Shown: positions 4,159 to 31,997 of the stretch, one piece after another
Position numbering within the stretch: the first letter of the stretch is position 1
Layout: every line of letters starts with the position of its first letter
DNA from: a bacterium
GTDB taxonomy: Bacteria; Verrucomicrobiota; Kiritimatiellia; RFP12; UBA1067
Assembly (NCBI GenBank): GCA_030537465.1
Contig: JAUNMP010000001.1
Coordinates: forward strand, 3,170-67,169
Direction: 5' to 3'
Length of the DNA stretch: 64,000 nt
Notes under the pieces: generated by a model
Databases searched by the model: none
What the model was told of the DNA's origin: nothing
Seen by the model: the letters and a program-made list of their open reading frames with translations, nothing else
Position numbers and translations under genes: made by a program

Positions 4159-6795
4159 ATGAAGCGTATTGTTGTGATGGCTGTCGGCCTGATCGGGATG
4201 GTTGCCTGTGGCGTGGAGATCAATTCGCTCACGCTCAAGGCCTCGTTCGACGATGCGGCGAAGGGGCGGTTGACGTCTCTGGAGGATGCGCATGGGCAGG
4301 AATACGTCTCGGCGCGGAACGTCGATTCTGCGCTCTGGAACGTCGAGGCCTGCCGGACGACGGACTTCACGCAGAAGCGTACCATCCGGGCCAACGAGGC
4401 GAAGAACTTCTTCGTCCAATGGACGGGCGAACGCGTGCTCCAGCTCGTCTGGGAGGATGTTGGGGACTGTGTGGCGCGCGCTGTCGCGACGTTTACCATC
4501 AAGCCGGACGATCCTGCCATCCGCTGCCGGATCGCGGTGACCCCCAAGGCGGGGTGGGCGCTCGTCGAGACGCAGTTTCCGCGCTTCGCGATGAATGAAT
4601 GCCTGGGGACGACGCCGACAGACGATGCGGTCGTAATGGGCACGGGGCATGGCGGACTCGTCCGCTATCCGATGAACCCGAACCGTGAGTACTGGCGCAG
4701 CCGCCATGTGGGGCATTCGCCAGGCAATCTCGTTGCACAGTTCGGCAGCTTCTTCGACGACCGCGGCGGTCTCTTTACGATGGCAGAGGACGCCGAGGGC
4801 AACGAGAAGGAGCTTCTGATGGACCGCTGGTGGCGGAAAGACCGTCCGGACGGCACATTCTACGGCGGCGACTTCCTCTTCCGCTGGAGCCGGTTCGAGT
4901 ATTCCGAAACCACGGACGAGCAGCCCTACGACATCCTCCTGCGCGGATTCTGGAATCCCGACGGCGAGGAGACGACCTGGTACGACGCGGCCGACCTCTA
5001 CAAGGCCTGGGCGAAGAAGCAGTTCTGGTGCGCGAAGACCTTCCTCGAAAAGTCCGAGTTGCCGGCCTGGACGCGCGAGGCGCCGGTGATGATGCGCTTC
5101 AACCGCGAGTGGTTCGACCGGCCAGCGTTCATGAAGGACTGGCTCGAGAACTACTGGACGAAGAACTTCCCGGGCGTTCCGCTTCTGGCAACGATGGAGG
5201 GCTGGGAGCATCATGGCGACTGGATCACCACGGAATACTTCCCAATGTATCCGAGCGAGGAGAAGTTCGCGGAAATCATGACATGGGTGAAGGCGGCGAA
5301 TGGACACTTCTGGCCCTGGCCGGGCGGACACCACTGGAATGTGCAGGTTGGGCTGAAGGACGACGGCACCTACCGGCTCGACTTCTCGAAGGGGTTCTGG
5401 CCGGAGGCCTCGAAGCACGCGGTGCTCAATCCCGACGGCAAGGTCCGCTTCGACAAGCTCGGCTGGCTGGGCGGCGGCAAGTCGGCATCAATGTGCCCGG
5501 GCGATCCCTGGAGCGTCGACTGGTGGAACCGCGACGTTGCGTGCGAGCTCGTGAAGCGCGGGGCCGATCTCGTGCAGGCCGACCAGGACGTCGGCGCGCG
5601 CGTGCCGACCTGCTGGTCACGCGAGCATGGCCACAAGCCGGGACCGGGCAAGTGGGCGATGGCGGCGCAGCGGCACCAGTTCGAGACAATGCTCGCGGAG
5701 ATGCGGAAGCTCAATCCCGGGGCGATGTTCTCCTTCGAGGAGATGCATGAGTTCTTCACCGACATCTACGCCTTCGCGGACTACCGCAACTGCCGGTGGC
5801 CGGGTCCGGAGTGGGCGAGCGTCTACAATTACCTCTACCATGAGTACACGGTCCAGTTCCAGAGCGGTGCAGAACAGTACACGCGTCCCTATTGGCTTGC
5901 GTTCTGCGCGGCTGATGGACAGATGCCGCGTCTGCCGGTGACGACCGGCTACTATGGGGAGAAGGGGGCGTCTCTGTTCCCCAATGGCGGCTTCGAGGCT
6001 TTGACCGAGGGCGGTCATGGGTTCGCCTTCTGGGAGAAGCCCGAAACGCATGACGTGGTGACGAACGACGTGAAGGAAGGACGGTATGCTCTCCGCGTGG
6101 CGACGACCGGCAAGCGGTCCCAGGTGGCGCGCAGCATCCCCGTCGACACGTTCTGGAAGCCGGGCACGGTGTATCGCGTGACGGCGTGGCTGAAGGGCGA
6201 GACCGACAATCCGGCGAACAACTTCGCCGCGAGCGCGATTGCGTCCGTCAACGGAAAGTACAAGGGATTCGGCGGCGTCGACTTCCGGGTACCGAAGGCT
6301 GCGGAGGGCTGGCGGAAGGTGTCCGCGACGTTTGAAATCAAGCAGGGGGCGCAGAATCTCCGCTTCATGCTGAACGCGAATGGCAAGACTTCGTTCCTCG
6401 TCGACGGCATCACGTTCGAGGAGAAGCAGTCCGACGGCACGTTCGCTCCCGTGGCCCGCAAGGCCGGCAATGCGGAGATTGTGCGCGACTTCTCCGAGCG
6501 GTGGATTCGTCTCTGGACGGGCGAGGGGCGCAAGTGGCTTGCCTATGGCCGCCAGCTGCACCCGCCGAAGATCGAGTGCGACTCGGTGGCCTACCATGAG
6601 AACTTCCGCGGTACGAACATCGACAATGTCAAGCCGGTCGTGTTTGGAACAGCTTGGGAGGCGGTCGACGGCACGCGGGCGCTCATGTTCGCCAACGCGA
6701 CGCCGTATGAACAGAAGATTGCCTACCGCTGGAACGGCAAATGGACGAGGACGACGTTCCTGCCATACGAACTCCGTCTCGTCCCGCAAAAGTGA
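4159..6795 (+). CDS. Secreted putative glycoside hydrolase (unknown family) with a C-terminal CBM4_9-like carbohydrate-binding module
   Basis: AAGGAG RBS at 4148-4153 with a 5-nt spacer to ATG 4159 (MKRIVVMAVGLIGMVACG signal or lipoprotein peptide). The C-terminal GGFEALTEGGHGFAFWEKP...YRVTAWLKGE...FLVDGITFEE matches a CBM_4_9 module. The catalytic region is Trp/aromatic-rich with no recognisable family. Confidence 0.55.
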   Translation: MKRIVVMAVGLIGMVACGVEINSLTLKASFDDAAKGRLTSLEDAHGQEYVSARNVDSALWNVEACRTTDFTQKRTIRANEAKNFFVQWTGERVLQLVWEDVGDCVARAVATFTIKPDDPAIRCRIAVTPKAGWALVETQFPRFAMNECLGTTPTDDAVVMGTGHGGLVRYPMNPNREYWRSRHVGHSPGNLVAQFGSFFDDRGGLFTMAEDAEGNEKELLMDRWWRKDRPDGTFYGGDFLFRWSRFEYSETTDEQPYDILLRGFWNPDGEETTWYDAADLYKAWAKKQFWCAKTFLEKSELPAWTREAPVMMRFNREWFDRPAFMKDWLENYWTKNFPGVPLLATMEGWEHHGDWITTEYFPMYPSEEKFAEIMTWVKAANGHFWPWPGGHHWNVQVGLKDDGTYRLDFSKGFWPEASKHAVLNPDGKVRFDKLGWLGGGKSASMCPGDPWSVDWWNRDVACELVKRGADLVQADQDVGARVPTCWSREHGHKPGPGKWAMAAQRHQFETMLAEMRKLNPGAMFSFEEMHEFFTDIYAFADYRNCRWPGPEWASVYNYLYHEYTVQFQSGAEQYTRPYWLAFCAADGQMPRLPVTTGYYGEKGASLFPNGGFEALTEGGHGFAFWEKPETHDVVTNDVKEGRYALRVATTGKRSQVARSIPVDTFWKPGTVYRVTAWLKGETDNPANNFAASAIASVNGKYKGFGGVDFRVPKAAEGWRKVSATFEIKQGAQNLRFMLNANGKTSFLVDGITFEEKQSDGTFAPVARKAGNAEIVRDFSERWIRLWTGEGRKWLAYGRQLHPPKIECDSVAYHENFRGTNIDNVKPVVFGTAWEAVDGTRALMFANATPYEQKIAYRWNGKWTRTTFLPYELRLVPQK

Positions 6796-6806
6796 GGAGT
6801 CTGAAC

Positions 6807-8084
6807 ATGGATCTTTCAAGACGTGGTTTCATTGGTGGTGCGGCGAGTCTGTTCGCCTTGTCGCAGTGCGTGGCCGAAGGGATGGTGGGACCGGATCCCA
6901 GGGTGTCCGAGGAATGTCGGGCGCGGGGCGGCGTGCCGAATGTGCTGGCGAAACTCAAGGCGGGGGAGACCGTCCGCATCGCCTATCTGGGCGGAAGCAT
7001 CACGGAGGCGAATCCCGGCTGGCGCGCAATGACGCTCGCGTGGTTTCGGGAGCGGTTCCCCCAGGCGAAAGTCGAGGAGATCAACGCGTCCATCTCGGGA
7101 ACGGGCAGCGACTACGGCGCCTGCCGTCTGCCGGGGGACGTTCTGGTGAAGAATCCAGACCTTCTCTTTGTCGAATTCCGCGTGAACGGATCCGCCGGCT
7201 ACGACTACCAGAGCGTGGAGGGCATCATCCGCCAGACTTGGGCGGCAAATCCCAGAATCGACATCTGCTTCATCTACACACTCTGCGAACCGATGCTGAA
7301 GGACCTCTCCGCCGGACGGCAGACCGGATTTGGCGTGGCGATGGAGAACCTCTGCAACCACTACGGGATCCCCTCGATCGACTACGGCCCCGAGATCACG
7401 AAGCGTCTCGCCGCGGGCGCGCTCCTCTTCAAGCCCACAAAGAATGCCCTCAAGCCCGAGGCGAACCAGCATGCGGACGCGAAACGGAACTACGAGGGGA
7501 ACGTACTTGTCTTCTCGCGCGATGGATGCCATCCTGTGAAGGAGGGGCATGAGATCTACCGTGACGTCGTCGCCCGTTCGATGGAGGGGAAGATATTCCC
7601 CGTGTCCGGACCGTCCGTCGCCCACATGATGCCGGCACCCCTCTCGAAGAGCCCGTGGCTGGCGGCCGAATTGGTCCCCAGCGCCGAGATGCTGAAGGGC
7701 GAGATCTGGAAGCCAGTTGATCTTGAGAAGGATCCTGTCTACCGCGCGACCTACGGGCGCACGCACCGGATGCTCCGCGGTGGCGTGTGGACCGATCGGG
7801 AGGGGACGTCGATCACGCTGAAGTGGACGGGCAACACGATCGGATTCAGCGACATCCCGCAGAGCCGCGAGGAGCCGATGGAGCTCGAGGTCTCCGTGGA
7901 TGGTGGCAAGCCGTTCACAATGACGCGTCGCCGCACGATGGAAGCGCACATCTATTCACGGTTCTGGTACCTCCCGGAGCAGGTCTGGGGCGAGCACATC
8001 GTGAAGGTGACGCTCAAGAAGCTTCCCGCGGGACAGCGCTGGATCGTGGGGCAGTTCCTGGTCGTCGGCAAGCTCACCCGCTGA
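6807..8084 (+). CDS. TAT-exported SGNH/GDSL-family hydrolase (probable carbohydrate esterase)
   Basis: TAT signal MDLSRRGFIGGAASLFALSQC. GDSL block IAYLGGSITE. GAGGAG RBS at 6794-6799 before ATG 6807. The listed 6741 start overlaps the upstream gene and is rejected. Confidence 0.7.
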   Translation: MDLSRRGFIGGAASLFALSQCVAEGMVGPDPRVSEECRARGGVPNVLAKLKAGETVRIAYLGGSITEANPGWRAMTLAWFRERFPQAKVEEINASISGTGSDYGACRLPGDVLVKNPDLLFVEFRVNGSAGYDYQSVEGIIRQTWAANPRIDICFIYTLCEPMLKDLSAGRQTGFGVAMENLCNHYGIPSIDYGPEITKRLAAGALLFKPTKNALKPEANQHADAKRNYEGNVLVFSRDGCHPVKEGHEIYRDVVARSMEGKIFPVSGPSVAHMMPAPLSKSPWLAAELVPSAEMLKGEIWKPVDLEKDPVYRATYGRTHRMLRGGVWTDREGTSITLKWTGNTIGFSDIPQSREEPMELEVSVDGGKPFTMTRRRTMEAHIYSRFWYLPEQVWGEHIVKVTLKKLPAGQRWIVGQFLVVGKLTR

Positions 8085-8156: not shown

Positions 8157-8987
8157 TTAGAACGAGAACGTGCAGTTCACGCCGCCCCAGACCAGCTGGT
8201 CCTTGCCGCAGCCCATGTAGTCGAGATGACGCAGGGTGTGGGAGGGAATCCAGGTGTAGTTGATCTGCGCGCCGACGGAGATGTTGTCCGTGATGGCATA
8301 GGCCGCGGCGACACCGATCGTGGAGTCGGTCAGTTCCGTTCCGGCGTCCACGCCCGTGACGTATTCGCTCCAGGCGTTGTCGCCGAAGCCGAGCGAGGCG
8401 GACGGGGTGATCGTCAGCTTGTCGACCGGTTCGAACTCGTGGGAGATGCCGAACGTGAAGTAGACCACGGAGGGGTCGGCGTCATGCGCGGAGTTGTAGT
8501 TCCAGTACGCGGCGGCGCTCGGCGTGATGATGTCGTTGTTGTAGGCAACGGACGCGTAGAGGTCCTGGTCGGAGGAGCCGTTGTTCTTCGGGAACGTGTA
8601 GAAGATTTGCCCAAGCTCGAAGTCGAAGTCCTTCACGCTGATTGAATAGGTGAGCGTGTAGTCGATCTCCTGGAGTCCGCAGGCCTGACGGCTGTTCGTC
8701 GCCGTGCCACGCTTGTGTGTGAGGTCGTAGGACTGCCAGATGTTGGCGGCGAAGGCCCCGTAGTCGCCCGTGTCGTATCCGAGCGTGAGGGACGGCTGCC
8801 AGACGGGATTCCCGTTGCAGATCGTGCCACGCCACATGTAGTCGCTCAGCACGTCCATGGAGAACTCGACGGACAGTCCGGCGGAGTCCACCTCCTCGAG
8901 CTCGTTCGTGGTCGCCTCCGCGGCCTTGGCGCCGCACGCGCAGAGAAGTGCCGTTGCCGCCGCCAGTGTGAATCTTGTCGCATTCAT
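8157..8987 (-). CDS. TorF-family putative outer-membrane porin (Gcw_chp / TIGR02001-like beta-barrel)
   Basis: Signal peptide MNATRFTLAAATALLCACGA. The alternating beta-strand pattern with DYMWRGT and VWQPSLTLGYD matches the TorF/Gcw_chp family signature (DYvfRGiSqt). Ends in an aromatic residue (TFSF). Start chosen at ATG 8987 (8993 is also possible). It is divergent from the TRAP operon. Confidence 0.55.
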   Translation of the reverse strand: MNATRFTLAAATALLCACGAKAAEATTNELEEVDSAGLSVEFSMDVLSDYMWRGTICNGNPVWQPSLTLGYDTGDYGAFAANIWQSYDLTHKRGTATNSRQACGLQEIDYTLTYSISVKDFDFELGQIFYTFPKNNGSSDQDLYASVAYNNDIITPSAAAYWNYNSAHDADPSVVYFTFGISHEFEPVDKLTITPSASLGFGDNAWSEYVTGVDAGTELTDSTIGVAAAYAITDNISVGAQINYTWIPSHTLRHLDYMGCGKDQLVWGGVNCTFSF

Positions 8988-9308
8988 GGTCATTGTCCTT
9001 CTTTGTGTTTTGCAGTGTCGTTGGTTGGATTTTGAACGACGCCAGATATCTAGCACAAACCGTGCCAAATCCCCGAACAGGCTTTTTCGACTGTGGAAGA
9101 AGGGGGCCGGAAGGGGCTATATTACACATTTTGTTGGTTGCTTGAGCAACAGGTTTAAAAAGTGTTAAACCGCATGCTACAAGTTCTTGCAATGGGTTGC
9201 AGACTTTGTACATCCCGTGTAACGGGTCTTGAAAATCGCGTGCCGGAGCCGAAAATCGGCGGATTGGACGGGTGCAAGTGGAACTACGCACACGTGTACG
9301 CGAGACTT

Positions 9309-9324
9309 TGGCACGGTCCTTGCT
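9309..9324 (+). promoter_or_regulatory. sigma-54 (RpoN) -24/-12 promoter upstream of the TRAP-eut operon
   Basis: TGGCACggtccTTGCT is an exact match to the TGGCAC-N5-TTGCW consensus. It sits 67 nt upstream of the dctP-like ATG (9391). DctP-type transporters are classically sigma-54/NtrC-family regulated. Confidence 0.5.
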
Positions 9325-9390
9325 AAAAGTGGTGCGTCGTTCAAGGGCGTCCGATGTGCGGAGGCCGAACGACACAAGGAGAAAGACAAG

Positions 9391-10497
9391 ATGAAAGCGA
9401 AGACGAACAAAGTGGCACCGGCGGGCAACCGCCGTGAGTTTCTGAAACTTCTCGGCACGGGCGCGGCGGCCGCCGCGGTGGCTGGCTGCGGGAAGCCGAC
9501 GCCACAGGAGAAGAACGTCTCCGTCCCCCAGACGCACAAGATGATCAAGTGGCGTTTCCAGACCTACGCCGGAACAGCCCTTGCGCAGCACGTGTGCAAG
9601 CCCGCGATCGACGCGTTCAACAAGGTCGCCGGCAACCGCATGCACATCGACCTCTACTATGCGGACCAGCTCGTGCCGACGTCTGAACTCTTCAGCGCGC
9701 TGCAGGCGGGCACGATCGACGCCGTGCAGAGCGACGACGACTCGATGTCGTCCGCGGCGGACGTCCGCGTCTTCGGCGGCTACTTCCCGTTCGCGTCGCG
9801 CTATTCGCTGGACGTGCCGGTACTCTTCTCGAAGTATGGCCTCGACAAGATCTGGGCCGAGTCCTACAAGGAGGCCTCCAACGGCCAGGTCACTTGGCTC
9901 TCGGCAGGCTCCTGGGATCCCTGCCACTTCGCGACGAAGAAGCCGATCAACCACCTCTCCGACCTCAAGGGACTCAAGGTGTACACGTTTCCGACGGCGG
10001 GCAAGTTCCTCAGCCAGTTCGGCGTGGTGCCGGTGACGCTGCCGTACGAGGACGCCGAGATGGCGCTCCGCACGGGTACGCTGGACGGCGTCGCGTGGTC
10101 CGGCATCACCGAGGACTACACGGTTGGCTGGGCCGACGCCTGCAAGTACTTCCTCACGAACTCCCTTTCCGGTGCGTGGATCGGCTCCTACTTCGCCAAC
10201 ACGAAGAGCTGGGAGGCGGTTCCGGAGGACCTGAAGGAGCTCTTCAAGCTCTCGATGGACTCCTCGCACTACTATCGTCAGCACTGGTACTGGGGAGGCG
10301 AGGCCGACCTGCGCGTCAACGGCGGCAAGCTGCAGCTCTGCTCCATCCCCGAGGAGGAGTGGAAGACTGTCGAGGAGAAGGCCGTGCCGTTCTGGGAGGA
10401 GATCGCCAAGAGCTCCCCGCGTGCGAAACAGGTCGTCGAGGCCTTCCGCAAGTACAACGCCGTGATGGCGAAGGCCGGCAAGCCGTATCGGTACTAG
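9391..10497 (+). CDS. dctP: TRAP transporter substrate-binding protein (DctP family) with TAT/Sec signal
   Basis: RBS AAGGAGAAAG before the ATG. Signal MKAKTNKVAPAGNRREFLKLLGTGAAAAAVAGC. Family blocks SELFSALQAGTIDAV and LSDLKGLKVYT...LPYEDAEMALRTGTLDGV match the DctP/TIGR00787 pattern. Confidence 0.75.
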   Translation: MKAKTNKVAPAGNRREFLKLLGTGAAAAAVAGCGKPTPQEKNVSVPQTHKMIKWRFQTYAGTALAQHVCKPAIDAFNKVAGNRMHIDLYYADQLVPTSELFSALQAGTIDAVQSDDDSMSSAADVRVFGGYFPFASRYSLDVPVLFSKYGLDKIWAESYKEASNGQVTWLSAGSWDPCHFATKKPINHLSDLKGLKVYTFPTAGKFLSQFGVVPVTLPYEDAEMALRTGTLDGVAWSGITEDYTVGWADACKYFLTNSLSGAWIGSYFANTKSWEAVPEDLKELFKLSMDSSHYYRQHWYWGGEADLRVNGGKLQLCSIPEEEWKTVEEKAVPFWEEIAKSSPRAKQVVEAFRKYNAVMAKAGKPYRY

Positions 10498-10511
10498 GAA
10501 GTGAGGAAATG

Positions 10512-10546
10512 AGGAACTAGGAAATGAGGGAGAATTCCTAGTTCCT
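10512..10546 (+). promoter_or_regulatory. Intercistronic stem-loop between dctP and dctQ (11-bp perfect stem)
   Basis: aggaactagga (10512-10522) pairs with tcctagttcct (10536-10546) across a 13-nt loop, followed by a second agttcct copy. Typical position for SBP/permease differential-expression hairpins. Confidence 0.4.
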
Positions 10547-10579
10547 AGTTCCTGGTTCCTTTTAAAAGGGGTTTTTGAT

Positions 10580-11728
10580 ATGTTGAAATATGTCAGAATC
10601 GTGGAGGCGATGACCCGAGGGCTCGGTCTTGCCTCCATGTATTTGCTGTTGGTCGTGCTGGGAGTTCTGATGTTCCCCGTCTTTGCCCGGGGAGGGGACA
10701 TCTCCACGATCTGGGCACTGGAGGCGGCGCAGTTCGCCGTGGGCGCCTACTACATCCTCGGGGCGGGCTATTCGCTTCAGCAGGGCGCGCATGTGCGCAT
10801 GGACTTCCTCTATGCCAACTGGAAACCGCGGACGAAGGCGATCGTCGATTCGATCACCTCGTTCTTCGTGCTGTTCTACCTGGTGGTGATGATCCTGGGC
10901 GGCTGGGACAGCTGCGCATACGCGGTCGTCTCGAAGCAGATCAACCACACGGTGTGGGCGCCCTATATGGCCCCGATCAAGATCGCGATGCTCGTGGGCA
11001 TGTTCTTCATGTTCCTGCAGATGACGGCCGAGTTCGTCAAGTCGCTGATGATTGCGCTGAAGAAGCCGATCGAGCTTCCGGACGCGGAGGCAGAGGAGGA
11101 GAGGCTCTACGAAGGGCGCGCGACGCGCAAGGAGTACTGGAAGACCTTTGCGGGATGCGCCGCGCTGGCCCTCGCCGGTTCGGCCCTGCTCGTGGTGGGA
11201 TTGCCGCGCGTGACGCCGGGAGGCGGCTTCGGGCTACTGCTGACGATCATCGGCGGCGTTCTCTGCGTGGCGGCGCCGATCTGCTCGATTCCTGTCTCGA
11301 TTCGCCGTCTGCACGACCTCGACATGAGCGGCTGGTGGGCGGTCGCGCTCTGGTTTTTCGGACTGATTCCCGGCTTCGGCATTCTCGTGTTCATCGCCGC
11401 GGCGTTCCTCTTCAGCACCGATGGCGCGCCGGGCACGACCGGCTTCGGTCCGGATCCGAAGGGCCGTGACCTCATCAAGCTCTTCGATCCGCGTCTGCCC
11501 GCAAAGCAGAAGCCGATCCCCGAGGTTCCCGTGCCGTCGAATCCGGATGTCGAGCATGCCTACTGGACGCCGTATCTGGTCTTCGGCGTCGTCGGCCTGC
11601 TGGCGGCGCTGGGTGGCTACGGGCTCTCCGTGCTGACCTCCAATCCCACCTGGTTCGTCCAGGGCGTGGTCGTCTTCCTTCTCTCACTCATGGCCTTGGT
11701 GCGAGGTGTCGTATGTATGAATCGATGA
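10580..11728 (+). CDS. dctQ: TRAP transporter small permease (DctQ) fused to a C-terminal DUF805 (YhaH-like) membrane domain
   Basis: The N-terminal ~170 aa are a 4-TM DctQ-like protein. The C-terminal part carries RRLHDLDMSGWW...LIPGFGILVF...GFGPDP, the DUF805 signature. Overlaps the dctM start by 16 nt. Confidence 0.65.
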   Translation: MLKYVRIVEAMTRGLGLASMYLLLVVLGVLMFPVFARGGDISTIWALEAAQFAVGAYYILGAGYSLQQGAHVRMDFLYANWKPRTKAIVDSITSFFVLFYLVVMILGGWDSCAYAVVSKQINHTVWAPYMAPIKIAMLVGMFFMFLQMTAEFVKSLMIALKKPIELPDAEAEEERLYEGRATRKEYWKTFAGCAALALAGSALLVVGLPRVTPGGGFGLLLTIIGGVLCVAAPICSIPVSIRRLHDLDMSGWWAVALWFFGLIPGFGILVFIAAAFLFSTDGAPGTTGFGPDPKGRDLIKLFDPRLPAKQKPIPEVPVPSNPDVEHAYWTPYLVFGVVGLLAALGGYGLSVLTSNPTWFVQGVVVFLLSLMALVRGVVCMNR

Positions 11729-13155
11729 GTCTGATTGAGTTCCTGCAGGCGAGCCCGGGGATCATCATCTTCATGATGTTCTCCCTGCTGATGGCGCTGA
11801 TGCTCACAGGGCAGCGCGTGTTCGGCGTGATGGGCTTCGTGGGCGTGGTCTTCGCGCTGATCTTCGTGGACCGCGGTGCGCTGGGGTACGGCTTCAACGC
11901 GGCGATCAAGCTGTTCAACTGGTATCCGATGCTGACGCTGCCGATGTTCGTGTTCATGGGCTTCATGCTCAGCGAGTCCGGCATCGCCAACGACATGTAC
12001 CACATGTTCCACGTCTGGTTCGGCGGACTGCGGGGTGGACTCGCGGTCGGCACGCTCCTTGTGATGATCATGATCTCATGCATGAACGGCCTCTCGGTCG
12101 CCGGCATGGCGATTGGCTGCTCGGTGGCGCTCCCCGAACTGCTGAAGCGCAACTACGACAAACGAATGATCTCGGGCGTGATCCAGGCGGGATCGAGTCT
12201 GGGAATCCTGTTCCCGCCGTCGATCGTGCTCGTGCTCTACGGAATGATCGCGCGTGAGCAGGTGAAGGACCTCTGGCTCGCCGGCATTGGTCCGGCCATG
12301 CTGCTCTCGCTGCTCTTCTTCGGCTACGTGGTGATCCGCTGCCGGATCAATCCGAAGCTGGGTCCGGTGCTCCCGAAGGAGCAGCGCAACTTCAGCTGGG
12401 CCGAGAAGTTCAAGGTTCTGCGGGCGGGCATTCTGCCGATCATCCTGGTGCTCAGCGTCATCGGGTCGTTCTTCAGCGGACTCACCTCCCTGGAGGAGAG
12501 CTCGGCAGTGGGAGCGCTCGCAGCGTTCCTGATCGCGCTCTTCAAGAAGCGCCTCACGATGAAGGTCTTCACCAAGACCCTCAAGGAGACGCTACACAAC
12601 TCTGCGATGTTCCTGTGGATCATGATGGCGGCGCTGAGCTTCTCGGCTGTGTTCGACTCGCTCCACGCGGTCGATGTGCTGAAGCAGTTCTTCACCTCTG
12701 ACCTCGGACTTTCGCCCTGGTGCGTGCTCTTCATGATGCAGCTCGCGTTCATCGTCCTGGGCATCTTCCTGGACGACACGGCCATGCTGATCATCGTGGC
12801 GCCGCTGTTCATCCCGCTGGTGAAGGAGCTGGGCTTCTCCTCCATCTGGTTCGGCGTGCTCTACACGATCACCTGCCAGATCGCCTACATCACGCCGCCG
12901 TTCGGGTACAATCTGTTCATGATGCGCGCGATGAGTCCGGACTCGATCACGATCAAGGACATCTACTCCTCGATCATCCCGTTCCTGATTCTGATGGTAA
13001 TCGCCATCGTGCTGATCATGGTGTTCCCGAGCATCGCGCTCTGGTTCCCTGACTACGTTAACGGCAAGGTGGTCGGTCCCGTCGACTGGCTCATCGCGCA
13101 CTGCGGCTGGTTCAAGGACCTCTGCGCTTCGTCGTTCCACTATGTGCTGCCTTGA
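11713..13155 (+). CDS. dctM: TRAP transporter large permease (DctM family)
   Basis: 480-aa polytopic membrane protein with 12+ predicted TM helices and Gly-rich loops. Its position after dctP/dctQ supports the call. Its start overlaps the dctQ stop. Confidence 0.75.
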   Translation: MYESMSLIEFLQASPGIIIFMMFSLLMALMLTGQRVFGVMGFVGVVFALIFVDRGALGYGFNAAIKLFNWYPMLTLPMFVFMGFMLSESGIANDMYHMFHVWFGGLRGGLAVGTLLVMIMISCMNGLSVAGMAIGCSVALPELLKRNYDKRMISGVIQAGSSLGILFPPSIVLVLYGMIAREQVKDLWLAGIGPAMLLSLLFFGYVVIRCRINPKLGPVLPKEQRNFSWAEKFKVLRAGILPIILVLSVIGSFFSGLTSLEESSAVGALAAFLIALFKKRLTMKVFTKTLKETLHNSAMFLWIMMAALSFSAVFDSLHAVDVLKQFFTSDLGLSPWCVLFMMQLAFIVLGIFLDDTAMLIIVAPLFIPLVKELGFSSIWFGVLYTITCQIAYITPPFGYNLFMMRAMSPDSITIKDIYSSIIPFLILMVIAIVLIMVFPSIALWFPDYVNGKVVGPVDWLIAHCGWFKDLCASSFHYVLP

Positions 13156-13163
13156 GGTGACCG

Positions 13164-14558
13164 ATGAATCCTGTGACACTTGAGGTTGCCGGTCGGCATT
13201 GGACGTTCAACTCCCTGAAGGAGCTGATGGGCAAGGCGTCGCCGCTGCGAAGCGGCGACGTGGCGGCGGGCTGCGCCGCGAGTTGCGACGAGGAGCGTGT
13301 GGCGGCGCAGATGCTGCTCGCGGACGTGCCACTCGCGCAGTTCCTCGAGGAGCAGCTCATCCCCTACGAGAAGGACGAGGTGACGCGGCTGATCGTGGAC
13401 ACCCACGATGCCGCGGCCTTCGCCCCCGTCAAGAATCTCAGCGTAGGCGAGTTCCGCAACTGGCTGTTGCGCTACGAGACGGACGAGACCGTGCTCAAGG
13501 AGTTGGCGCCGGGATTGACACCGGAAATGGTCGCCGCCGTCTCCAAGGTCTGTTCCAATCAGGATCTGATCCTCATCGCTTCAAAGTGCCGTGTCGTCAC
13601 GGCCTTCCGCGACACAATCGGACTGAAGGGGTGCCTCTCGACGCGTCTCCAGCCCAACCATGCGACCGACGACCTCAAGGGCATCGCGGCGTCGATGCTG
13701 GAGGGGCTCCTCTACGGCTGCGGCGACGCGGTCATCGGCATCAATCCGGCGACGGATTCGGTGCCGATGATGCAGGAGCTCCTCAAGCTCATCGACGAAC
13801 TCATCCATCGCTACCACATCCCCACGCAGAGCTGCGTGCTCGCCCATGTGACGAACGCGATCGAGGTGATGCGGTCGGGGACGCCCGTGGACCTGGTCTT
13901 CCAGTCCATTTCCGGCACGGAAATCTCCAACAAGGTGTTCGGCATCAATCTCGGCATCCTGAAGGAGGCCTATGACGCCGCCTTGTCGCTCAAACGCGGC
14001 ACGGTGGGGCAGAACGTGATGTACTTCGAGACGGGGCAGGGGAGTGCGCTCTCCGGCCGCGGTGACTGGGGGGTGGACATGCAGACCTGCGAGGCGCGGG
14101 CCTACGCGGTGGCGCGTCCGTTCAAGCCACTGCTCGTGAACACGGTCGTCGGCTTCATCGGCCCCGAGTACCTCTACGACGGCAAGCAGATCATCCGCGC
14201 GGGACTAGAGGACCATTTCTGCGCCAAGCTGCTCGGGCTGCCGATGGGATGCGACATCTGCTACACGAACCACTGTGAAGCGGACCAGAACGACATGGAC
14301 ATCCTGATGACGCTTCTGGCGGCCGCAGGGCTCAACTACCAGATGGCCATCCCCGGAGGGGACGACGTCATGCTCGGCTACCAGACCACGAGCTACCACG
14401 ACATACACTACGTGAGACAGCTGCTGGGGAAGCGTCCAGCACCGGAGTTCGAGGCCTGGCTTGAGGAAATGGACCTGGTCGACGTGCGCCAGCGATTGAT
14501 CGCCCACAGAGGAGGAGAACATGCTCTTATCGACTACCAGCGCGGACTTGTCGCCTGA
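13164..14558 (+). CDS. eutB: Ethanolamine ammonia-lyase large subunit EutB
   Basis: Near-collinear match to EutB: ELRSGDVAAGCAAS..ERVAAQ, IPTQSCVLAHVT, NTVVGFIGPEYLYDGKQIIRAGLEDHF, CDICYTNH. It starts 8 nt after the dctM stop with RBS GAGGTGA. Confidence 0.95.
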   Translation: MNPVTLEVAGRHWTFNSLKELMGKASPLRSGDVAAGCAASCDEERVAAQMLLADVPLAQFLEEQLIPYEKDEVTRLIVDTHDAAAFAPVKNLSVGEFRNWLLRYETDETVLKELAPGLTPEMVAAVSKVCSNQDLILIASKCRVVTAFRDTIGLKGCLSTRLQPNHATDDLKGIAASMLEGLLYGCGDAVIGINPATDSVPMMQELLKLIDELIHRYHIPTQSCVLAHVTNAIEVMRSGTPVDLVFQSISGTEISNKVFGINLGILKEAYDAALSLKRGTVGQNVMYFETGQGSALSGRGDWGVDMQTCEARAYAVARPFKPLLVNTVVGFIGPEYLYDGKQIIRAGLEDHFCAKLLGLPMGCDICYTNHCEADQNDMDILMTLLAAAGLNYQMAIPGGDDVMLGYQTTSYHDIHYVRQLLGKRPAPEFEAWLEEMDLVDVRQRLIAHRGGEHALIDYQRGLVA

Positions 14559-15312
14559 TCCCTGGTCCGCCCTCAAGAACTTCACCACGGCCCGCATCGC
14601 CATGGGACGCGCGGGGGGGAGCCTGCGGACGGCGAATCTGCTCGACTTCCGTCTGGCCCACGCCCGTGCCCGAGATGCGGTGCATTCGGCGTTTCACGTC
14701 GAGACCATTCGCAGTCAGCTGTCGGAGGCGGGACTCGAGTACGTCGAGGTCCAGTCTCAGATCACGGACAAGCTCGACTACCTGCTGCATCCCGAGAAGG
14801 GACGTCTTCTGGCGGACGAATCGACGGAATTTCTGCGTGAAAAGGCGAAGAAATGGGGCATTCGCGACGTTTCTATCGTCATTTCGGACGGACTTTCCGC
14901 AATTGCCGCTGAATCGCACGCCGTCGCCGTCGCCAAGACGTTGCAGGCGGAACTACCCGAATGCACGTTCTACCCGGTCGTCGTCGTGCCGTTCGGCCGC
15001 GTGAAGATTGCCGACGCCATCTCGGACATTCTGCAGGCGAGGCTGGTGATTATCCTCCTGGGGGAACGTCCGGGACTCGGCTCCCCGGACTCCCTCAGTG
15101 CCTATTTCACCTACATGGCGCGGAACAGTTCGGTCGATTCGGACCGCAACTGCGTCTCGAACATCCGTCCCTTGGGAATGCCCATCCCGTGGGCCGTTCG
15201 CAAGCTTTCCGTGCTCATGCGTGAGTCCTTCCGCATCCGCCTGAGCGGAACGGGGCTCAAGGACCGCCTCACGCTTGACGATCTGCGCCGAATGTTGCCG
15301 CTTGCGGACTGA
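14521..15312 (+). CDS. eutC: Ethanolamine ammonia-lyase small subunit EutC (short N-terminus, no microcompartment-targeting peptide)
   Basis: NFTTARIAMGRAGGSLRTANLLDFRLAHARARDAV matches the EutC core. GGAGGAG RBS at 14511-14517. Overlaps the eutB 3' end by 38 nt. Confidence 0.9.
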   Translation: MLLSTTSADLSPDPWSALKNFTTARIAMGRAGGSLRTANLLDFRLAHARARDAVHSAFHVETIRSQLSEAGLEYVEVQSQITDKLDYLLHPEKGRLLADESTEFLREKAKKWGIRDVSIVISDGLSAIAAESHAVAVAKTLQAELPECTFYPVVVVPFGRVKIADAISDILQARLVIILLGERPGLGSPDSLSAYFTYMARNSSVDSDRNCVSNIRPLGMPIPWAVRKLSVLMRESFRIRLSGTGLKDRLTLDDLRRMLPLAD

Positions 15313-15331: not shown

Positions 15332-15381
15332 GCGCCTGTCTTCCAATGTGGAGGGCATTTCCAAAAGATAGGCGCAGAGAC

Positions 15382-16869
15382 ATGAATCTTTCCAGACGTG
15401 GTTTCATTGGCGGTGCGGCGAGCTTTCTCGCGCTGTGCCAGGGGCGGGTTTTCGCTGCGAAACCGGGGGCCTTCACGGGTGGAACGCCGAGTTTGACATT
15501 TGGTGTTCTCTCGGACGTGCACATCTGCCTGGCGGCGGGTGGCAAGGCCCTCAAAAAGGGGTTCGAGACGGGTACCCTCGTGAAGGCCTTCGCCTGGTTC
15601 CGCGACAACGGCGCGGACGCTGTGGTGATTGCGGGCGACATGGCACATAGTGGCCTTGTCGGCGAACTGAAGGCTGTGGCAGATGCCTGGTTTCAGGTCT
15701 TCCCGGACGACAAGGCGCCGGACGGCCGCAAAGTCGAGCGGGTCTTCGTCTTCGGCAACCACGACTGGTCGAGTCCCGGACGTGCCAAGGAGGTCTTCCC
15801 CGACGAGGCCGAACGGAACGCGAATCTGCTCGTCAAGGATCCCCAGAAATGGTGGCAGGAGATCTTTCACGAACCGTGGACGCCGTTCTATCGGAAGACC
15901 GTGAAGGGGTATGACTTCATCGGCGCGCACTGGTGCAATGGCGGCTGCAACGGCAAGAAGGAAGTTTTCACCAAGGGAATGCGCGAATTCTACGCGGGGC
16001 AGAAATTCGATCCAGAGAAACCGTTCTTCCACATTCAGCATCCCCAGCCGAAGGGAACTGCCCATGGTGAAAACGTCTGGGGGCAAGACGACGGTGTGTC
16101 GACGGAGATTCTCTCCGCCCATCCGAACGCGGTGGCGTTTTCGGGGCACTCGCACACGTCGCTGACGGACGTCCGCAGCATCTGGCAGGGGGCGTTCACC
16201 AGCGTGGGCTGCGGGACGCTGCGTGATGTCAATCCGCTGCCGCCGTTGCCGCCTGGTACGACGACGTACGTGGGGGGCTGCGAGAACTACAAGTCGCCGA
16301 AGGGCGTGCCGGCCGAGAAGTTCGACGACCACAAGGCCCTGGCGATGATCGACAAGTACAATTGCCGTCAGGGACAGCTGGTCCGCGTCTATTCGGATCG
16401 CATGGTCTTCTCGCGGCGCGAGTTCGTGACGGGCGTTCAGCTGGGTCCGGACCTCGTGATGCCGCTGCCCGTCGGCGGCGAGAAGCCTTTCGCCTTCCCT
16501 GAGCGTCAGGCCAAGGCGAAACCGCCGGCCTTCCCGGCCGACGCGAAGCTCGCGGCGAAGAAGGTGATGGCCAAGCTGCGGCGCAAGAAGCCGAAGACGA
16601 AAGCCGAGTGCTGGGAGCTTGAATTCCCCGCGGCCAACGCCCAGAAGGGGGCGCGTCCGGCGCTCTACGAGATCAGCGCGCAGGGGGCGGACGGCAAGAC
16701 GTGCGCGTTCGGTCTGGCCTGCGAGGGATTTCGCTTCCCGCTCTCCGACAAGCGGGCGAAAAAGCCCCTCGTCTTCCGCGTCGACTGCAGCCGCGTGGCC
16801 GCGGAACCGATGTTCTCGGTTCGCGCCGTCTCCGCTTGGGGTAAATGGAGCGAACCGCTCAAGGCCTGA
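15382..16869 (+). CDS. TAT-exported metallophosphoesterase (calcineurin-like phosphoesterase)
   Basis: TAT signal MNLSRRGFIGGAASFLALCQG. Motifs GVLSDVHI, AGDMAHSG, GNHDW and GHSHT are present. It is paralogous (~45% identity) to the gene at 28289. Confidence 0.8.
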   Translation: MNLSRRGFIGGAASFLALCQGRVFAAKPGAFTGGTPSLTFGVLSDVHICLAAGGKALKKGFETGTLVKAFAWFRDNGADAVVIAGDMAHSGLVGELKAVADAWFQVFPDDKAPDGRKVERVFVFGNHDWSSPGRAKEVFPDEAERNANLLVKDPQKWWQEIFHEPWTPFYRKTVKGYDFIGAHWCNGGCNGKKEVFTKGMREFYAGQKFDPEKPFFHIQHPQPKGTAHGENVWGQDDGVSTEILSAHPNAVAFSGHSHTSLTDVRSIWQGAFTSVGCGTLRDVNPLPPLPPGTTTYVGGCENYKSPKGVPAEKFDDHKALAMIDKYNCRQGQLVRVYSDRMVFSRREFVTGVQLGPDLVMPLPVGGEKPFAFPERQAKAKPPAFPADAKLAAKKVMAKLRRKKPKTKAECWELEFPAANAQKGARPALYEISAQGADGKTCAFGLACEGFRFPLSDKRAKKPLVFRVDCSRVAAEPMFSVRAVSAWGKWSEPLKA

Positions 16870-20156: not shown

Positions 20157-23100
20157 ATGAAACGAGTGGTATTGATTGCGGCGGCGTGTCTGTCGTTGGG
20201 CGTCTGGGCGGATGGTTGGCGTTTTGCAGATGGGACGTTGACCTATTCCAAGGATGGTTCGGATTCCTGGAAGATGGTACCATCCGTGAAGGGTACGACG
20301 GTGACCCTGACCTCGCTGGAATCGACGATTCCCGCGGACGGGGTGATCGATTTCGTCGGTGCGCTCGAGGCGTATGGCCTCACGGGGACGGGGTATTCGC
20401 TGGTCTTCGCCGAAGGGGAGGGACTTTCCGTTTTCGCTTCGGCTTTGGACGTGCGGCTGGCCGGCTGTCCGTGGCTGGGGCGGATGGACAAGGCTGCGGG
20501 CGCACCGTTCGCGGGCGTGACGAATCTGGTCGTCGGGACGCTGGGGACGGATCTGGATTTTGGTAGCGGCACGGGAAATACGCAGACCGTGCCGCTGGAA
20601 AACGCCGTGTTCAGTACGGCGGCGAATCTTGCGTCCGTGGAGATCTACGGTGGCAACCTCAAACTGGCGAATGCCTGTAGCGGATCCGGGAACTTGAGGA
20701 CCGTTCTCGTCCAGTCCTCCGGCACGTTGAACATGGGTTCCTGTTCGTTCAACTGCGGCACGAAGCGTCTGATGACGTCGGCGAAGGTCATCGCGGGTGG
20801 AGATCTGAATCTGGGGTCGCGGACGTTTCGGACGTCCCTTGCGACCGGGGCATCCGTGTATGTCGAAGCTCCGACCAAGGCATCCGTTGTGCTGGACGCG
20901 TTTCCGCTCTACGAAACGGAAACGAAATATTGGATCAACCTCTATTGGAACGCACCGGCGCCGAAGACCGTGAACACGAGCACGGATGCCTTTGTCGGCA
21001 ACACGATTGTCAATTGGTTCGTCTACAATACACCGGACGTGGTGGCGGCCTGGCCGAAGATGAACAAGACGTCCACGGTACAATCCGCGGCGAATTCCAG
21101 CATGTGGGTTCGACTTCCGGTCGATCCGACGGACTGCACGGGGGAGGGTTTTTGGCGGGTGCGTGGCACGGATGAGAATCCTTACCGTGGCAGTTCGTCC
21201 GGATGGGGCGGATATGGCGCATTGTACTGGTTCGACATGCGCACGGGAGATTGGTCCTATGCGGACGGCGTCCTGACCTCCGCGCATGGGTGGAAGCTCC
21301 GCCCGTCCTTCAGCGACACGACGGTGACATTGACGTCCGAGGCCTGCACACCGCCTGCGGATGGCGTCCTTGATCTCTCGGGTGCGCTTCAGTCGATGGG
21401 TTCGGCGGCGCCGGCACCCCTCGCTGACCTTTCCCTGGTTCTGACTGAAGGGGACGGACTGACGGTCTTCTCCCAGGTGAAGGTGTTCAAGGCCGCGCAC
21501 TGTCCATGGCTTGGAAAGATGGGGAAGGGAAGCGGCGCGCCGCTGACGAGCCTGGAGGCGTTTTCGGTGGGCATGCCGTTTCGGGATCTGGTCTTCGGCG
21601 ACAGCACGGCGAACACGGGGACGTTCGACACGCGTGCCAACAGTGTCTTCAGCGGAACCTCGACGCTTCGGGAGGGCACGATCCAGGGGCGCAACGTCTC
21701 GCTCAACAATGCCTGTTCGGGGCACAAGACGCTGAAGAGGATCTCCGTCCGCGCGACGGGTACGCTCGACACGGGCGTCTGCGCGTTCAACAGCGGGGGA
21801 TCGAACTTCAATCTCGAGAACGTCTCGTTCGTGGCGGGAGGCAACATCAAGATCGGCGGGCGGACGCTTCGCGCGTCGGTCGCCTCGAATGCGGTCGTCT
21901 ATGTCGAAGCGCCGGCTTCGGCGACGGTGACCCTGGATGAATGGGCGTTCTTCCAGTCCAATGAAAAGTCCCCATTCTCGCTTTATTGGAATGCAGCCGC
22001 GCCGCGTACGGTCGCGACGACGACGAAGCCGATGAACAACAAGACTGTGGCGACCTGGTACTTCTACAATACGCCGGAACTGGTGGCGACCTATCCGGCG
22101 ATGAGCGAGACGAGCAGCGTGCAGTCGGCGTCCAAGTCGTCCCTCTATCTGCGTCTGCCGGTCGATTCGTCTGATACGACGACGGAAGGTTTCTGGCGGA
22201 CGGGAAGCAACACGGATGCGAACCTGGTTCGGGGAGGCAACGAGACGGGATATGGCCCGGCCTATTGGCATGCGCCGTCTGCGATTTCTCCGGGAAATTG
22301 GACATATGCCCAGGGTGTGCTTAAGTTCGTTGACGGGGGCTCCGTGCAGTGGGAGATCGTCCCGTCGGTTTCGAAGAAGACGCTGACGCTGACGTCGAAG
22401 AACGGGACTGCGGCGGCGAACGGTGTTCTGGATCTTGCGGGGGCCGTCGAGGCGCTGAACCAGGGTGGCGTGGACGTGGTGCCGGGAACGGATTGGACGC
22501 TGGTCTTCAATGATGCGGGCGGGGCGTTCGCGAAGGTGAAGGATCTGTCGCTTTCGAACTGCCCGTGGCTCGGACGGATGGAAAAGCAGGCCGGCGCGGG
22601 CTTCTCCGCGCTGGAGCGGATTTCCGTGGGCATGCCGGATGTCGATCTGGTGTTCGGAAATGGCGCGTACAATGCCCAGAAGGTCGAGCCCTCGTACAGC
22701 GTATTCCCCGATTCGGCGAATCTGGGCGAGGTGACGATTCTGGGTGATCGGCTCGAGTTGGATGATGCCTTTGCGGGTCTGCCCAACATTTCAAACGTCT
22801 ACGTCAAGGCGACAAGATTGTTGAATCTGGGGAACTGTTCCTTCAACGACGGCGAAGCGCGCAAGTTGAAGCGGGTGTCGTTCATTTCGGGGGGTAACCT
22901 GAATATGGGCTGGCGGACGACGCGCAATGCGCTCGCGTCCGATGCCGTGATCTACGTCGAGGCGCCGGCGACGGCAACCGTGACGTTGCAGGAATACAGC
23001 TTCTACAATGGAACGGGGACGTCCTATCCTGTGTCAATGTACTGGAATGCGCCGAAACCCGTCATCGCGCAGAACTACGCCGCCGCCAGCATCATGCTGA

Positions 23101-31943: not shown

Positions 31944-31997
31944 GGGGATTGGGAACCCAAAAACAGGAACTAGGAATTGGGAGAAAGGACGATTTTC

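Follow-up and report, generated by a model that had tools for sequence, protein, structure and literature searches.

Analysis of a 64,000-nucleotide (nt) stretch of a Kiritimatiellia contig (JAUNMP010000001.1 of assembly GCA_030537465.1, positions 3,170 to 67,169, hereafter the window) revealed that the gene at 10580-11728 codes for the small permease subunit (DctQ, here Q) of a transporter of the tripartite ATP-independent periplasmic (TRAP) type in an enlarged form, in which the Q core is followed in the same open reading frame (ORF) by a DUF805 domain and by a tail of two further helices. This fused architecture is real, conserved and confined to a clade of gut Kiritimatiellia. The type of transporter to which the gene belongs is known, while the Q::DUF805::tail architecture is a new variant of it that is restricted to one narrow clade.

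Analysis of the deduced protein of 382 amino acids (aa) with Pfam (hmmscan) returned DctQ (PF04290) at aa 27-155, covering profile positions 2-129 of 132 (E=1.8e-15, 57.4 bits against a cut-off of 28.3), and DUF805 (PF05656) at aa 178-291, where the match extends over positions 5-111 of the 111-position profile (E=1.6e-17, 64.4 bits against a cut-off of 25.7). A sequence-only reading of this DNA had earlier proposed that a small subunit of about twice the normal length carries a DUF805 domain, and this is borne out: both profiles lie far above their curated cut-offs in one ORF, the unfused relatives measure approximately 165-219 aa, and the motifs by which DUF805 had been recognized, RRLHDLDMSGWW, LIPGFGILVF and GFGPDP, were located at aa 242-253, 262-271 and 288-293, respectively. 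The proposal of a two-part fusion was incomplete, since it had missed the third part, a Pro-rich loop and two helices (aa 298-382), for which no Pfam family was matched. DctQ proteins otherwise either stand alone with about 150-230 aa or are fused directly to DctM; the 227 aa beyond DctQ are not DctM here, and no NCBIfam model covered the whole protein.

A hydropathy scan indicated nine hydrophobic segments, of which four belong to DctQ, three to DUF805 and two to the region aa 330-377. The DUF805 part contains, in this order, a GRATRKEYW motif, two transmembrane helices, an interfacial helix with RRLHDLDMSGWW, a short helix-PG-helix re-entrant hairpin and the motif DGAPGTTGFGPDPKGR. All signatures of the domain were found, namely GRxxRxEYW, RRLHDxxxSGWW, a third hydrophobic segment with its P-G turn, and DGxxGxNxFGPDP, the Asn of this last motif being replaced by Thr. 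Alignment of the family revealed that P304, P307, P312, P317 and P322 of the Pro-rich loop are invariant, as are G339, G346, N355, P356, F359, G362, G376 and C379 of the tail hairpin.

A word-indexed search of 5.8 billion proteins yielded 42 protein clusters with 65-98% identity, all of them 382-389 aa long and annotated with both Pfam domains, and those with a named source came from metagenome-assembled genomes (MAGs) of Kiritimatiellia. The full-length gene was also found in 16 species-level genomes (67-98% identity) in a scan of one genome per GTDB species; these were sampled from human gut, Hadza, horse faeces and rumen and are labelled as Kiritimatiellae/Kiritimatiellia or carry older or mis-binned names. 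The human-gut MAG HGM23428 is 98% identical to the window. In 15 of the 16 species loci a single frame runs through all three parts between the start and the stop codon. The exception is locus L022 (UMGS1035), where one additional G in a G6 run at the LYGGR codon of the DctQ/DUF805 junction (approximately 6470-6480) splits Q from the DUF805-tail part in that assembly; approximately 205 downstream codons stay open in the shifted frame, and the same G run is unbroken in the sister genomes L017 and L019. This frameshift could be a homopolymer sequencing error, a very recent event or a slippage-prone site. Two shorter proteins, P0043 and P0044 (the latter followed by a 129-aa ORF), were considered as natural split genes and rejected, as both decay into out-of-frame sequence and are frameshifted fusions. 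Judged by their sequences, the short versions (P0043, P0044 and L022) are the fusion broken by frameshift and not the ancestral state.

The sequence-only reading had also named two genes joined by a sequencing error as what would undo the fusion. Re-reading of positions 11100-11200 revealed no stop codon or frame change, and with the same frame kept in the 42 clusters and in 15 of 16 independent species loci a frameshift or misassembly was rejected. The exact protein of the window is present in NCBI as MDO5316991.1 under the automatic name 'DUF805 domain-containing protein' and has been seen on many contigs, while a sister protein is automatically named 'TRAP transporter small permease subunit'.

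To define the range of the fusion, a profile derived from alignment A1 (the window protein and 41 cluster representatives) was compared by hmmsearch with 1.84 billion representatives of 50%-identity clusters. Only one of the 6909 matches was full-length, namely the family's own representative P0030 (736 bits), and the next one (220 bits) covered DctQ only. Among the best 150 of the 6909 matches no other DctQ-DUF805 fusion was present, distant fusions below approximately 82 bits being outside the reach of the search. The long or two-stretch candidates among these 150 were DctQ-DctM, tandem DUF805, DUF805-SHOCT or chimeric calls, and the 'DctQ plus enzyme' proteins P0046-P0049 and P0073 were discarded as singletons whose gene calls appear to be chimeric. 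For the two-helix tail the only matches were fragments of the fused-Q family. The nearest stand-alone DUF805 proteins share at most 39% identity and carry N-terminal zinc ribbons and C-terminal SHOCT, never the tail, and no recent donor of the DUF805 part was found among 267 candidates, which is weak evidence as that search did not return the fusion family itself. In the searched literature we found nothing on DUF805 together with TRAP, nor on the function of DUF805. The suggestion that the architecture is undescribed agrees with this and with its full form occurring in a single 50%-identity cluster; the fusion is catalogued under automatic names only.

The closest unfused relatives of the Q core (45-55% identity) were found in Geminisphaera colitermitum and in one MAG each of Lentisphaeraceae, Verrucomicrobiales, Acidobacteriota and Desulfosarcina. 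All five carry an ordinary Q, and four of the five do so in the same context, in which the genes for the binding protein (P), Q and the large permease (M) are followed by eutBC; the Desulfosarcina locus has only a distant, partial EutB-like match approximately 2 kb past M. Since relatives in the same context carry a plain Q, the appended module is probably dispensable for ethanolamine TRAP transport generally. Analysis of the 4-6 kb flanks of the five unfused loci by tblastn revealed no DUF805. An origin by read-through into an adjacent DUF805 gene is therefore unsupported, no such neighbour being still visible in the relatives.

The mean pairwise identity within the family is 0.86 for the DctQ core, 0.55 for the linker, which is nevertheless always present and in frame, 0.54-0.57 for the DUF805 helices, 0.66 for the Pro-rich loop and 0.60 for the tail, and it reaches 0.89 in the RRLHDxDxSGWW motif and 0.93 in the DGAPGTTGFGPDPKGR motif. 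The motif residues R, R, H, D, G, P, G, G, G, D and P remain invariant even when stand-alone DUF805 proteins are included in the alignment. The ratio of nonsynonymous to synonymous substitution rates (dN/dS, Nei-Gojobori) is 0.06-0.44 in informative pairs for aa 178-382 and 0.03-0.27, mostly <=0.07, for the Q core. Across the family, identity to the window is 85-93% for P, M and EutB and 55-69% for DUF805 together with the tail. These comparisons indicate that purifying selection acts on the added part, though less tightly than on the Q core, and that the constraint on it is concentrated in the polar DUF805 motifs and not in the membrane helices.

The DctQ part shows four hydrophobic segments with K/R-rich odd loops, and its orientation was borrowed from solved homologues; the only meaningful PDB match of this half (Foldseek) was a weak fold match to SiaQ, 7qha_A, with a target-normalised TM-score of 0.52 and a probability of 0.57. 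In solved TRAP structures Q is N-in/C-in and M is N-out/C-out. As the C-terminus of Q is cytoplasmic in these structures, the module is predicted to begin in the cytoplasm. When the third DUF805 segment is taken as spanning the membrane, the family average of Lys plus Arg (K+R) is 15.9 inside and 10.4 outside, against 23.8 inside and 2.5 outside when it is taken as re-entrant; the loop between segments 7 and 8 (aa 278-330) averages 5.9 K+R. Tandem DUF805 proteins have a K/R-rich soluble linker between the copies and no extra span, and copies in the same orientation would therefore have both DUF805 ends on the same side. E. coli YhaH with a C-terminal green fluorescent protein gave a membrane signal in a screen in which the tag stays cytoplasmic; this favours a cytoplasmic C-terminus of DUF805 and is suggestive only.

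An AlphaFold2 model of aa 156-382 alone had a mean predicted local distance difference test score (pLDDT) of 80.1 and a predicted template modelling score (pTM) of 0.66. In this model the third segment breaks at the invariant P-G turn into one helix of 11 and one of 12 residues. Most of the length of both tail helices has a pLDDT of 86-91, and the Pro-rich loop has low pLDDT here and in the full-length model. Comparison of the module with the PDB by Foldseek gave no significant fold match. As modelled, the module looks like a compact unit whose two ends lie in the cytoplasm together with the Pro-rich loop and the two conserved motifs, so that only the short loops at aa 208-215 and 352-356 appear to be periplasmic. 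Because the charge distribution, the tandem-repeat architecture and the AlphaFold2 model agree, the analysis suggests that DUF805 proteins generally (P0090, P0102, P0053, P0202-P0210) are not three-span proteins and have instead two spans and a cytoplasm-side re-entrant helix-PG-helix hairpin, with cytoplasmic termini.

The operon has the order porin-like gene, binding protein, Q::DUF805::tail, M and eutBC. The binding protein matched PDB entries 4uab/4xf5 over the whole mature domain with E=4e-148 and 497 bits, the next PDB match having E=7e-15, and the segment WSGITEDYTVGW is identical between this protein and 4UAB, which is Csal_0678 of Chromohalobacter salexigens crystallised with ethanolamine. 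TRAP systems for ethanolamine have been known since 2015 and were thought surprising, the substrate being a cation; EtoVWX of Phaeobacter sp. MED193 has been characterised, with a binding-protein Kd of approximately 8 uM and the gamma-glutamyl pathway as catabolic partner. From the match to 4UAB and from eutBC downstream, the system of the window is assigned to the ethanolamine type already known from Csal_0678/EtoVWX, and its earlier description as an atypical TRAP system is not upheld.

In 15 of the 16 species loci eutBC follows dctM, either directly or past an insert of approximately 1.4 kb, and the flanking genes differ. The insert between dctM and eutB was found in L017 (7586-8710, minus strand) and L022 (approximately 8571-9932) and holds a 373-aa ORF on the opposite strand that matched no Pfam family. 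In L011 (8557-10140) a GFO/IDH/MocA oxidoreductase takes the place of eutBC; the link to the lyase is therefore not absolute. No microcompartment genes were found at the eut locus, and the searched literature yielded nothing on the use of ethanolamine by Kiritimatiellia. Loci L001 and L003 carry a gene for a CobA/BtuR-type adenosyltransferase after eutC; at this place, right after eutC, the window has a calcineurin-like phosphoesterase (15346-16869).

The start codon of dctP is the ATG at 9391, preceded by AAGGAG, and not the TTG at 9229. The N-terminus deduced from it shows a Tat-type signal, NRREFLK, followed by the lipobox AVAGC, and the binding protein is thus probably a lipid-anchored lipoprotein. 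Comparison of the dctP N-termini (L001-L027) showed that in most relatives the twin Arg is cut to a single Arg (TTREFLK) and that the lipobox follows the pattern L-[AT]-G-C. A lipid-anchored binding protein as a correlate of the fusion was rejected, as the lipobox also occurs in three of the five unfused relatives.

The start of M overlaps the stop of Q by 16 nt (ATGTATGAATCGATGA), and this overlap is kept in each of the 15 related loci whose Q frame is intact, an arrangement consistent with coupled translation. Comparison of the DctM termini revealed that in the fused-Q loci M is longer by approximately 12 residues at the N-terminus and by approximately 30 at the C-terminus (GPVDWLIAHCGWFKDLCASAFHY; GPVDWLIAHCGWFKDLC...), and that none of the five unfused loci has either extension. 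Because both M termini are outside in solved TRAP structures, these extensions are predicted to be periplasmic. Q and M are separate overlapping ORFs and not a fused QM, the TIGR02123 model scoring 28.7 bits on M against a cut-off of 320.65.

We read the gene, with about even confidence, as coding for the stator subunit Q of a TRAP transporter specific for ethanolamine, into which an accessory membrane module has been built. In such a system ethanolamine would be passed by the binding protein to the ion-coupled elevator in M, and Q would brace the scaffold as in other TRAP systems, where its accepted role is to extend the scaffold and thereby let the elevator work as a monomer. The module would start in the cytoplasm, insert two helices, the re-entrant helix-PG-helix hairpin and the second helical hairpin, and end in the cytoplasm, folding as one compact unit that is tied to Q via a linker of approximately 25 residues. 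It would lie beside the Q/M scaffold in a 1:1 stoichiometry, enlarge and anchor the stator, and display RRLHDxDxSGWW, DGAPGTTGFGPDPKGR and the Pro-rich loop at the cytoplasmic membrane face. By analogy, extra helices on Q have a precedent in HiSiaQM, in which the fusion helix enlarges the scaffold and forms a lipid pocket. The module would keep an intrinsic DUF805 activity, used in cis to modulate or stabilise the transporter; that it retains such an activity and is not inert ballast is suggested because the motifs are conserved like the Q core while the added helices drift.

Several points weigh against this reading. The full-length model is poor (pLDDT 65.6, pTM 0.39) and leaves the arrangement of Q and module unplaced; their physical contact, or that of the module with M, is postulated. 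The topology is a prediction from charge counts and a computed model. Sequence change in the added region is several times faster than in P, M and EutB, and some pairs reach a dN/dS of 0.4, which is also compatible with a weakly constrained passenger. As the M extensions are predicted to be periplasmic and the DUF805 motifs cytoplasmic, the two would not be in contact via those motifs. Since DUF805 has no known biochemical activity, 'modulates the transporter' is a placeholder for a mechanism, and the regulatory or gating role put forward in the sequence-only reading was neither favoured nor contradicted by the analyses.

The fused part might alternatively be an independent passenger, in which DUF805 and tail have a membrane activity of their own, such as a small-solute or ion pathway or an envelope-stress role useful during ethanolamine catabolism, and are fused for co-expression or co-localisation with no action on the transporter. 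We regard this as possible, with a chance of about one in four in our judgement expressed loosely, as the DUF805 motifs are kept as strictly as in the stand-alone proteins, the module is predicted to be a self-contained fold joined through a variable charged linker, stand-alone DUF805 is widespread and combined with unrelated small domains (zinc ribbons, SHOCT), and the full-length model has no confident packing between Q and module. A separate gene in the operon would however suffice for co-expression; the fusion, the two-helix tail and the changes in M are fixed together in 16 species, and the unfused relatives lack a neighbouring DUF805 gene, so there is no sign of an earlier partnership between separate genes. 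It is also conceivable, and rather doubtful, that the five hydrophobic segments of the appendage do no more than widen the scaffold, anchor it or promote oligomerisation, the identity of DUF805 being incidental. Scaffold extension is the accepted role of Q, to which a fusion helix is known to add, the tail glycines G339 and G346 at i/i+7 suggest tight helix packing, and the added helices tolerate much substitution. The best-conserved parts of the appendage are however polar interfacial motifs, the opposite of what is expected of a pure anchor, and related ethanolamine TRAP systems work with an ordinary Q.

Drift provides a further explanation, by which an accidental fusion was fixed in one lineage and is slowly decaying. 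Although the narrow range (a single 50%-identity cluster), the faster evolution of the appended region than of the core and the frameshifted copies in some assemblies fit such a relic, the approximately 205 codons have stayed open in 15 of 16 species although synonymous sites have diverged, in part to saturation. The motifs are invariant and dN/dS lies well below 1, and the one broken species copy is due to one G in a homopolymer, the whole sequence downstream of it being intact; we consider a relic very improbable. An error of sequencing or assembly that joined dctQ to a neighbouring DUF805 gene has in its favour only the prior plausibility that attaches to any unusually long ORF. The same frame in independent human, Hadza, horse and rumen assemblies and the exact protein on many contigs leave it a negligible likelihood, and both the relic and the artefact are essentially excluded.

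A wider proposal, which we put forward as speculative and unlikely at present, is that DUF805 serves secondary transporters in general as an accessory module facing the cytoplasm, for which the fusion would be a Rosetta stone; the module would be a true fourth TRAP component here, and YhaH/YhaI would be detachable versions. If this were true, RRLHD..SGWW, GPDPKGR and the Pro-rich loop might respond to a signal from the cytoplasm or provide a docking site for a partner, for example EutBC, and the entry of ethanolamine might be coupled or throttled to its deamination.

Comparison with known systems places the built-in module among them as follows. Csal_0678/EtoVWX shares with the system of the window the three-gene P-Q-M unit tied to ethanolamine catabolism and a homologous binding protein, Q core and M, while the 382-aa Q with DUF805 and tail, the M with extra termini, and the porin-like gene and sigma-54-type promoter motif at the head of the operon are different here; the gamma-glutamyl pathway of the Phaeobacter system is replaced by the B12-dependent lyase EutBC. 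The fused QM proteins of the HiSiaQM/TIGR02123 kind also have extra transmembrane material at the C-terminus of Q, but there it is one linking helix in a single Q and M polypeptide, whereas here it consists of five hydrophobic segments of an unrelated, independently folding family, and Q and M are separate. Because its predicted C-terminus is cytoplasmic, the appendage cannot serve as a connector from Q to M.

The stand-alone DUF805 proteins YhaH and YhaI of E. coli have the full profile and all signature motifs in common with the fused Q. Stand-alone members measure approximately 120-160 aa or occur with zinc ribbons, SHOCT or a second DUF805 copy, the two-helix tail is found in none, and among the members examined none is fused to part of a transporter. 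The only DUF805 phenotype that we found is that two coliphages need YhaH to infect E. coli. A last comparison concerns the notion that a TRAP system may be tuned from the cytoplasmic side by a fourth component that is not essential. TeaD, a regulator of the universal-stress type, has this role in the ectoine TRAP system of Halomonas; it is soluble, has a gene of its own and belongs to an unrelated family, whereas the extra component here is membrane-embedded and a covalent part of Q.

TRAP transporters have been described as strictly three-part, with Q as a minimal four-helix brace; the fused Q and the changes in M show that the stator can be elaborated, and the fused Q represents a natural construct, or experiment, on the contribution of the scaffold to the elevator mechanism. 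DUF805 is widespread and without known function, and the conserved fusion, which ties it covalently to a transporter whose substrate is known, gives this family its first concrete functional association. A cassette for ethanolamine uptake and catabolism in uncultured gut Kiritimatiellia is also relevant to competition for host-derived ethanolamine.

Table. Coordinates of the fused Q gene, its parts and the surrounding features in the window
Feature	Position	Strand	Basis or remark
Complete gene for the 382-aa TRAP small subunit in three parts (DctQ, DUF805, two-helix tail)	10580..11728	+	Single uninterrupted ORF
DctQ part, aa 1-155, four hydrophobic helices, stator/scaffold subunit	10580..11044	+	PF04290 and hydropathy
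Charged linker, aa 156-177, KKPIELPDAEAEEERLYEG	11045..11110	+	Alignment; predicted cytoplasmic
DUF805 domain, aa 178-297	11111..11470	+	PF05656 match
Pro-rich basic/acidic loop, aa 298-329	11471..11566	+	Invariant prolines; low pLDDT; predicted disordered, cytoplasmic
Family-specific helical hairpin, aa 330-382	11567..11725	+	Two hydrophobic helices; no Pfam match
dctM, large permease, 480 aa	11713..13155	+	PF06808, 218 bits
DctM N-terminal extra residues (approximately 12), fused-Q family only	11713-11748	+	Termini comparison
DctM C-terminal extension GPVDWLIAHCGWFKDLCASSFHY, fused-Q family only	13054..13152	+	Termini comparison, 13 fused and 5 unfused loci
dctP/etoX-type ethanolamine-binding protein (predicted)	9391..10497	+	Pfam DctP, 67.8 bits; PDB 4uab/4xf5 match
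eutB	13164..14558	+	PF06751, 707 bits; ethanolamine ammonia-lyase subunit
eutC	14521..15312	+	PF05985, 264 bits; ethanolamine ammonia-lyase subunit
Putative sigma-54-type -24/-12 motif TGGCACGGTCCTTGC	9309..9323	+	68 nt upstream of the dctP start codon
Porin-like outer-membrane protein gene	8157..9068	-	Weak MipA and OMP beta-barrel matches
Hairpin of short repeat units followed by a U-run, dctP-Q spacer	10503..10561	+	RNA fold

Analysis of the region upstream of dctP revealed that TGGCACGGTCCTTGC is the only exact match in the window to TGGCAC-N5-TTGC, which we take to be the sigma-54 -24/-12 consensus. An exact motif also heads the operon in L007 (289-303), L008 (1816-1830), L009 (3044-3058), L012 (3932-3946), L013 (3923-3937), L019 (190-204) and the unfused L025 (4629-4643). 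An imperfect mirrored sigma-54-type motif at 9053-9067 on the minus strand faces the porin-like gene of the window, and the two motif copies are the arms of a 38-nt inverted repeat. In L008, L009, L010, L012, L013, L016 and L020 the porin-like gene lies directly upstream of dctP on the same strand, while in the window, as judged from the blastn orientation, it is inverted and divergent from dctP. The porin-like protein may be the outer-membrane entry route for ethanolamine.

The hairpin in the dctP-Q spacer, whose units are GGAAnTGAGGAACTA and its complement, has a folding energy of -31 kcal/mol (z = -3.3 against shuffled sequences). The spacer measures 82 nt (10498-10579) in the window and approximately 133 nt (1478-1610) in the 98%-identical L007, the two lengths differing because the repeat copy number differs; in L001 the hairpin is absent and the gap between dctP and Q is 3 nt. 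The hairpin could act by attenuation or by stabilising the mRNA, and in this way set how much binding protein is made relative to permease. Searching the window with Rfam at gathering thresholds gave no riboswitch or other RNA family.

Near the operon the window also carries a glycerophosphodiester phosphodiesterase fused to BNR repeats (31977-33938) and a GDSL-type hydrolase (6741-8084); together with the phosphoesterase after eutC, these neighbours are possibly a context of phospholipid-headgroup scavenging. Further along the plus strand are a 2095-aa ORF at 20157-26444 and, at 55099-58668, a 1189-aa protein that combines a hydrazine-synthase-alpha middle domain with an FGE-sulfatase domain.

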